Assembly: GCA_964016885.1 (NCBI GenBank)
Contig: OZ024753.1
Location: 15,376,001 to 15,440,000, forward strand
DNA length: 64,000 bases
Source of the DNA: Eledone cirrhosa
Taxonomy: Eukaryota
Direction of reading: 5' to 3'
Shown here: piece by piece, positions 44,027 to 44,347 of the stretch
Position numbering within the stretch: the stretch's first letter is position 1
Layout of the letters: each line of letters begins with the position of its first letter
The notes under the pieces: generated by a model
Told to the model about the DNA's origin: nothing
The model's input: the letters and a program-made list of their open reading frames with translations, nothing else
Databases searched by the model: none
Made by a program: the position numbers and the translations under genes

Positions 44027-44027
<1 letters not shown>

Positions 44028-44345
44028 AACGGAAAAAATGAAATGAAATTTCATTTCCCACTCTTAGTACGGCTGTTACTTAAATATAAGTATGTACACT
44101 TAAATATAAGTATGTATACAGACGTACAGTAGTATGTATATATATATACATACATGCACACATATATATATGTACGTATGGATTCACCGAACATTTATTA
44201 TAATGCTCGGTGTGTTTGTAAACAAACATCCCGTATTAAGCCGTAGTGTCTAGCAACCATCGTTGCTCGTTTGTTCAACACTGACAAAGGAACGCTGTAC
44301 TAGTTTCAAGCTTATTAGCTATCGTCAGCAACGTATACCTTCCTG

Positions 44346-44347
<2 letters not shown>
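44027..44347 (-). mobile_element. Solo diverged copy of the 474-bp HHR family E (HHR 44293-44333)
   Basis: CGTTG-CTGACGA-TAGCT-AATA-AGCTT-GAAA-CTAG-TA-CAGCG; homology blocks to the array; (TA)n on both sides. Confidence 0.85.

Follow-up and report, generated by a model that had tools for sequence, protein, structure and literature searches.

A predicted retrozyme copy, single-armed and promoterless, in a TA microsatellite of Eledone cirrhosa

The solo copy and the related two-armed array

The window, by which we mean the whole analysed stretch of 64,000 nucleotides from Eledone cirrhosa, is AT-rich animal DNA with many microsatellites and with repeats that look octopus-like, and it carries on its minus strand a solo copy that, judged by its sequence, is a member of the known non-LTR retrozymes, single-armed, promoterless and placed in a TA microsatellite (Table 1). 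The copy aligns with the 474-nt unit of a tandem array in the same window at 72.5% identity over 357 columns (E 1e-47); gap-free identity reaches 0.89 at unit positions 321-368 and 0.76 at 81-175, and conservation between the two extends outside the ribozyme. No ORF of at least 110 aa overlaps the copy in the ORF list of the window. A GC-rich palindromic element of ~100 nt, which resembles a small inverted-repeat transposon, occupies window positions 44630-44735, 300 nt upstream of the copy.

The 5' end could be read directly: the sole minus-strand GGCAG within 43900-44500 lies at 44347 and matches the array GGCAG at 57204, just as the original prediction had it, and the junction with the (TA)n tract falls exactly at the G of +1, with zero microhomology. 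The promoter cassette of the array, which had been described as missing from the solo copy, is indeed absent, with (TA)28 directly preceding GGCAG, and a target-site duplication is unreadable within this tract. At the other end, the 3' stop that the copy was said to have in common with the inverted piece of the array holds with corrected coordinates: the family sequence ends at 44025 and not at 44027, since a contig from a public sequencing run (X4) goes on from there into family spacer, and the inverted piece ends at 59181 and not at 59178. Because both stop after TTTAT (unit position 368), the agreement is exact rather than approximate.

The two arms of the array are joined head to head with a 3-nt overlap, and its units start with GGCAG at 57204, 57678, 58156 and 58630. 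The right arm stops at TTTAT (unit 368) and the left arm 59 nt further in (unit 309), both running into (AT)n; the solo copy, like the array, carries the inner site 59 nt from its own end. The inner ends of the arms lie at unit 422 and unit 83, not at +1. A template jump at window position 59003, within the inverted arm, joins unit 405 to unit 192, from which it follows that the template extended beyond the fixed end and almost as far as the octamer.

Table 1. Positions of the solo copy, its parts and the related array within the window.
Feature	Position	Strand	Remarks
Solo retrozyme copy	44025..44347	-	323 nt; from unit +1 to the fixed outer end (368-equivalent)
(TA)28 microsatellite	44348..44404	.	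Abuts GGCAG; inferred target
Type I hammerhead motif	44292..44334	-	Predicted cut after 44298; swapped pair 44331/44295
Predicted extended stem I	44283..44347	-	GGCA at +1 pairs with UGUC at +62..+65; fold closed at the first nucleotide
59-nt 'tail'	44025..44084	-	From inner (44084, unit 309-equivalent) to outer (44025) fixed end; inferred start sites of reverse transcription
T6 tract	44033..44038	-	3' side of a predicted hairpin; the copy continues 8 nt beyond it
Left arm of the related array	56896..58683	-	~3.8 units of 474 nt (one of 478); meets (AT)n at unit 309 (outer end); inner end at unit 422
Promoter-like cassette of an array unit	57679..57747	-	Octamer 57747-57740, TCAGCC block, TATATA 57705-57700; function inferred; missing from the solo copy
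Right (inverted) arm	58681..59181	+	Unit 83-405 followed by 192-368; meets (AT)n at unit 368 (outer end)

Promoter-like cassette and hammerhead motif

In the array, the octamer ATGCAAAT starts 69 nt upstream of GGCAG, with 42 nt from the octamer start to TATA and 27 nt from the start of TATATA to GGCAG, the latter distance being the one given in the original prediction. Set against the type 3 (U6/H1-like) Pol III layout, the unit has its octamer at -69, its TATA at -27 and, by resemblance only, a PSE-like block. Type 3 Pol III promoters comprise an upstream octamer, a PSE and a TATA box located 25-35 nt before the start, according to the accessible text of two papers (PMC6004067; PMC7949045), and the array cassette resembles the compact promoters of this type with U6/H1-type layout, as far as the second of these describes them (PMC7949045).

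The proposal that GGCAG is the +1 of an snRNA/U6-type cassette gains support from a second, unrelated hammerhead family in the window (octamers at 35088 and 61156), in which TATA comes 43 nt downstream of the octamer start, with RGCA a further 27 nt on, and whose cassettes align with those of the first family with blocks in common. Since the arrangement of octamer, TATA, 27 nt and RGCA recurs in an unrelated family, GGCAG can be regarded as a well-motivated predicted start. Half of the ten octamers in the window head such an octamer-TATA-RGCA cassette, three of the five being array units, and RGCA is found at +27 in 6 of 187 isolated TATAWA motifs, a count that may include the cassettes themselves. 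In the first family, and likewise in the 61156 copy, a predicted terminal stem is closed by the first nucleotides. A random inner end would meet +1 in ~0.2-1.2% of cases per inner end (~1.2% for +1 plus or minus 2), a figure to be read with the fact that this +1 was chosen in the original prediction after sight of the solo copy. The second family has solo copies of its own, at window 35060-35260 (+) and 61128-61330 (+), with octamer, TCA(G/C)C block, TATA and RGCA at +27 (35158 and 61226); both of the two retain the promoter and an upstream palindrome, and in each case a common SINE-like repeat ends just before the copy.

The hammerhead motif of the solo copy consists of a 6-bp stem I, CUGACGA, a U-U mismatch, a stem II of AGCU/AGCU, GAAA and a GUA triplet, while its stem III is of 2 bp and lies inside the palindrome ACUAGU. 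In solo copy and array alike, stem I pairs positions 14-19 with 51-56, GUA stands at +48..+50, and position 10.1-11.1 is U-U instead of G-C. Monomers of newt ovary reportedly start ~47 nt upstream of their cleavage site, which is close to the 50 nt here. The features that characterize non-LTR retrozymes were found both in the motif, which is a type I hammerhead with a conserved core, a helix I of ~6 bp, a helix II of ~4 bp and a short palindromic helix III, and in the repeat, a short non-coding tandem unit with one ribozyme per unit (474 nt in the array, ~420 nt in a tandem from run X5). The metazoan type I motif, thought to act as a dimer, is defined in the accessible text of PMC4209133, and the motif of the solo copy and the array fits those described there. 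A U-U mismatch at the base of stem II, as here, is reported for an axolotl motif in the accessible parts of PMC7229834 and bioRxiv 10.64898/2026.07.22.740005.

Stem I reads CGUUG/CAGCG in the solo copy and CGGUG/CAUCG in the array, and all 19 modelled pairs are canonical in both, with one two-sided and one one-sided change between them. The 9 substitutions that separate the two over 65 nt leave the core untouched and break 0 of the 12 motif pairs. When 9 changes were placed at random, in a permutation test that covered motif pairs only, core and 12 pairs were spared in 0.4% of 200,000 trials (p ~0.004), whereas at least one two-sided, pair-keeping change arose in 9% of the same trials (p ~0.09); this supports constraint on the ribozyme, while the covariation itself is not significant. 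Two earlier claims thus stand on the former figure, namely that the core was kept despite divergence of the body and that the ribozyme fold has been under selection, where the selection is on parent RNA lineages and not on the solo locus. The wobble swap in stem I, which had been put forward as covariation, is real and preserves the pairing, but it is insignificant on its own (a shuffle test reproduced it in 244 of 500 shuffles) and represents a lineage trait of a subfamily found in other organisms, not a peculiarity of the solo copy. A contig of run X5 differs from the copy by 6 letters over 44270-44339, as many as the array type predicts, and X4 contigs that overlap there at similar depth have 0 differences from the copy at both swap positions.

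On the array unit, contigs from the runs give a third allele, A, at +17; the allele shares of 5.5% for U at +17 and 37.5% for G at +53 are not comparable with each other, as diverged contigs drop out near +6..+24. Rows missing from the variant tables (57618, and all above 44308) were not taken as invariance of the core, given that the tables omit rows that must exist. The states A-U, G-U and U-G of the +17/+53 pair, together with many A-to-G variants on the sense strand, would fit A-to-I edits fixed by reverse transcription. A conserved ribozyme region with compensatory stem I changes across the family, as here, also characterizes pDo500 of the cricket Dolichopoda, in the accessible text of a study with 198 sequences, compared with 2 full sequences plus contig fragments in our case (PMC2837043). 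Rfam returned 0 hits at the gathering threshold in the whole window and, at E up to 10 around the solo copy, 47 hits that were all AT-repeat matches and included no hammerhead, and exact scans for the ribozyme pattern came back empty (0 loci) for metagenome and viral contigs alike. The minimum-energy fold of the monomer differs from the active fold and is no better than those of shuffled sequences (z -0.1 to -1.0).

Family members in public sequencing runs

Part of the solo copy is present in 20 runs (16 studies) of the 24 listed; none of these 20 is listed as RNA, a fact that carries no weight for or against expression. Contigs from four runs were compared with the solo copy and contigs from two with the array unit, run X1 being used in both comparisons. 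In X1, the type of which is not on record but which by its size is probably genomic, 7,019 contigs match the solo copy, a member of an abundant family. Its summed depth in the 3' TA flank is ~201,000 after removal of the shared base, about one third of the depth just inside, and 139 in the 5' TA flank at GGCAG, ~1,400-fold below the 3' end. Because summed depth is not copy number and rare variants are dropped from contigs, this ratio says only that copies starting at GGCAG are not a major class.

The sequence found beyond GGCAG points the same way. Among the matches listed (22 of 161 rows), the best-supported loose ends at 44347 and 44345 (64 and 30 contigs) consist of promoter spacer and TATA, and of the 6 X1 rows among the matches listed for the array reference (12 of 127 rows) none is a loose end at +1. 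One X5 contig links GGCAG via 97 nt to the 3' end of a preceding unit, a tandem junction which indicates that the subfamily of the solo copy exists as promoter-carrying tandem units of ~420 nt. That the span from transcription start to 3' end is a regular shape of the product is not supported: contigs that reach GGCAG run on into the promoter, and given both this tandem continuation in the relatives of the solo copy and the depth gap at the TA|GGCAG junction, copies starting at GGCAG are not the main product.

Run X7 (type not on record, 88 million letters) holds a contig of depth ~1,100, with A at +17, that stops at or just before GGCAG and has no further letters; the X7/X1 depth ratio is 3.0 over +1..+90 and 0.68 over the promoter, with a dip at +50..+63 around the predicted cut, and contigs of this kind cannot show the start, the end or the level of an RNA. 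Two minor groups of contigs were also seen. At array reference 57674, 26 X1 contigs have a loose-end consensus in which the first 19-20 nt are joined to sequence from ~+65, at a median loose length of only 11 nt, and may represent a subfamily with the promoter but without the ribozyme core. Several contigs of X5 and X6 share with the solo copy nothing but its last 25-40 nt (reference 44047-44054) plus TA flank, beyond which they carry up to 255 nt of unrelated sequence; they may derive from other elements with the same 3' end motif, or be chance matches in AT-rich DNA.

Known systems and possible origin of the solo copy

Metazoan non-LTR retrozymes resemble the present family in their non-coding tandem units of a few hundred nt, with low GC and a type I hammerhead in each (PMC7229834; bioRxiv 10.64898/2026.07.22.740005, both as far as accessible), and the accessible part of the latter also describes dispersed 'solo' monomers beside the arrays and proposes PLEs as partner (bioRxiv 10.64898/2026.07.22.740005). 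For these retrozymes, circular RNA and cleavage have been demonstrated, while for the family described here cleavage is a prediction, and the accessible text of the same two sources reports neither a promoter within the unit nor a mapping of copy ends (PMC7229834; bioRxiv 10.64898/2026.07.22.740005). Hammerhead satellites in which each unit has its own promoter are represented by newt satellite 2, with an snRNA-type promoter, and by the schistosome satellite, with a Pol III promoter, in the accessible text of PMC2220036; the newt promoter drives Pol II according to the same source, while the TATA box present here would indicate Pol III in the vertebrate scheme. Our literature search, which took in a minority of the subscription papers, returned no cephalopod retrozyme and no promoterless run-off retrozyme copies; the supplements to PMC7229834 and bioRxiv 10.64898/2026.07.22.740005 may list relevant families.

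With regard to the way the copies were inserted, the fixed ends 59 nt apart, the head-to-head arms and the (AT)n flanks form the pattern expected of a Penelope-like enzyme. According to the accessible text of PMC11167929, the PAc enzyme of Anolis cuts both strands of AT-rich DNA in vitro and extends each of them, begins copying at two internal RNA positions that delimit a 'tail', and works mainly from uncleaved RNA. Inverted 5'-truncated arms and tails are described as typical of PLEs, and Hydra-clade PLEs as inserting in (TA)n, in the accessible part of PMC8557442. The two fixed 3' ends bounding a tail, the inverted truncated arm and the AT-rich target were observed here in one array and one solo copy in the window and in summed contig depth; altogether, the likeness to PLEs as these sources present them (PMC11167929, PMC8557442) comprises the two fixed ends, the tail, the inverted 5'-truncated arm, the AT-rich or (TA)n target, the hammerhead and a probable uncleaved RNA template. 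Unlike PLEs, the family has no ORF here, and its tail measures 59 nt, compared with 30-40 nt in the PLEs described in accessible text.

Our reading of the solo copy, which we advance tentatively and at somewhat less than an even chance, is that a Penelope-type reverse transcriptase copied an uncleaved read-through transcript from a fixed internal site as far as its 5' end at GGCAG, where it ran off. The cassette of octamer, PSE-like block and TATA would start an RNA at GGCAG, and some transcripts would pass the T runs and enter the next unit; read-through past T6 is required, since the solo copy and all array templates extend beyond it. Paired (dimer) ribozymes would then cut out unit-length RNAs that carry the next promoter and could circularise, as has been proposed for retrozymes (PMC7229834, accessible text). 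A PLE enzyme copying these circles from the two fixed sites would give two-armed arrays, and the same enzyme, if it began at the outer site within the first unit of a transcript left uncleaved, would reach +1, run off there and leave a solo copy of exactly this form, which, lacking an upstream promoter, would be a dead end. That the template was uncleaved had been suggested before and finds support, in that the copy spans the cleavage site and the Penelope-like enzyme prefers unprocessed RNA in vitro (PMC11167929, accessible text).

This reading barely leads over chance truncation, to which we assign a probability close behind. Under the latter, the same family would have used the same Penelope-type priming on a circular or multimeric template, and the GGCAG end would result from an accidental stop or from later loss, within the unstable TA tract, of what lay upstream or of a second arm, so that the special 5' end of the solo copy may be chance. 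Array templates demonstrably contain the promoter, as seen in the identical promoter-carrying units and in the jump to unit 405, and 5' truncation is common in PLE insertions, some of which, among thousands, must end at +1. The scarcity of TA|GGCAG junctions relative to 3' junctions is also in its favour, a depth of 139 against ~201,000 being what chance truncation would yield if about one tenth of insertions were single-armed, a fraction that is assumed. What it meets with difficulty is that the end of the copy is exact to the nucleotide, at a position which the second family likewise marks as +1 and which a single inner end would seldom hit (~0.2-1.2%, as above).

The 3' end bears on a stricter version of the Pol III reading, a monomer from GGCAG to an oligo(U) terminator that was retroposed whole, like a SINE or an snRNA retrocopy, which we consider improbable. 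The U6/H1-type layout of octamer, PSE-like block and TATA would suit it (PMC7949045, accessible text), and so would the T6 near the end of the copy and the T4 that begins 3 nt after that end (unit 371), where an RNA could have been primed close to its 3' end; this T4 leaves such a terminator-near origin a small opening. The oligo(U)-defined end of the original prediction is nonetheless not supported by the sequence of the copy, which continues for 8 nt after T6 and stops at one of the family's two fixed ends, which are 59 nt apart, so that an RNA ended at T6 cannot have been its template. T6-T7 is in addition a subfamily feature (loose-end consensus rows at 57804), the same TTTAT end closes multimeric arms copied from templates that extend far beyond it, a T run is missing at the second fixed end, 59 nt upstream, and the solo copy lacks an A or U tail. 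The end coincides with the fixed outer site of the family and is not the one expected of a retrocopy of a Pol III transcript terminated at oligo(U). Slightly less probable still is that the copy once had a promoter whose TATA box grew into (TA)28 while the remainder decayed in place: of the 20 nt that precede the TA tract, 11 agree with the corresponding 20 nt ahead of the array TATA, a value reached with register freedom by 7 of 256 TA-tract flanks (the solo's included), but local alignment of the 70 nt upstream with the promoter gives at best a score of 14, which 85 of 125 control flanks reach, the octamer is missing upstream, and nothing remains of the 21-nt spacer between TATA and GGCAG.

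Returning to run-off from an uncleaved transcript, a broader generalization, which we regard as possible but as the more doubtful of the two proposals, is that retrozymes with a U6-like promoter leave two products: promoter-carrying arrays from cleaved, circularised RNA and promoterless run-off solo copies from uncleaved RNA, with the ribozyme carrying the upstream promoter to the progeny. If so, solo copies of this kind would record the start site in the genome in the manner of 5' RACE, and the problem of a retroposing element with an external promoter would be solved. In their accessible parts, the papers on animal retrozymes propose circles and PLE enzymes and map neither starts nor ends. 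Should inner ends turn out to be concentrated at GGCAG, genomic sequence alone would locate the start and reveal a second, circle-free route, and the reason for the ribozyme would be that cutting and circularising read-through RNA lets the upstream promoter be inherited.

No candidate ORF for an autonomous PLE partner was noticed in the ORF list of the window. Further CUGANGA...GAAA motifs occur at 41267, 50062 and 19646 (+) and 15605 (-), as well as at 2861 and 34278 (+) and 25064, 37077 and 60399 (-); they belong to at least two additional dispersed families without an octamer-TATA cassette and are possibly Penelope terminal repeats.
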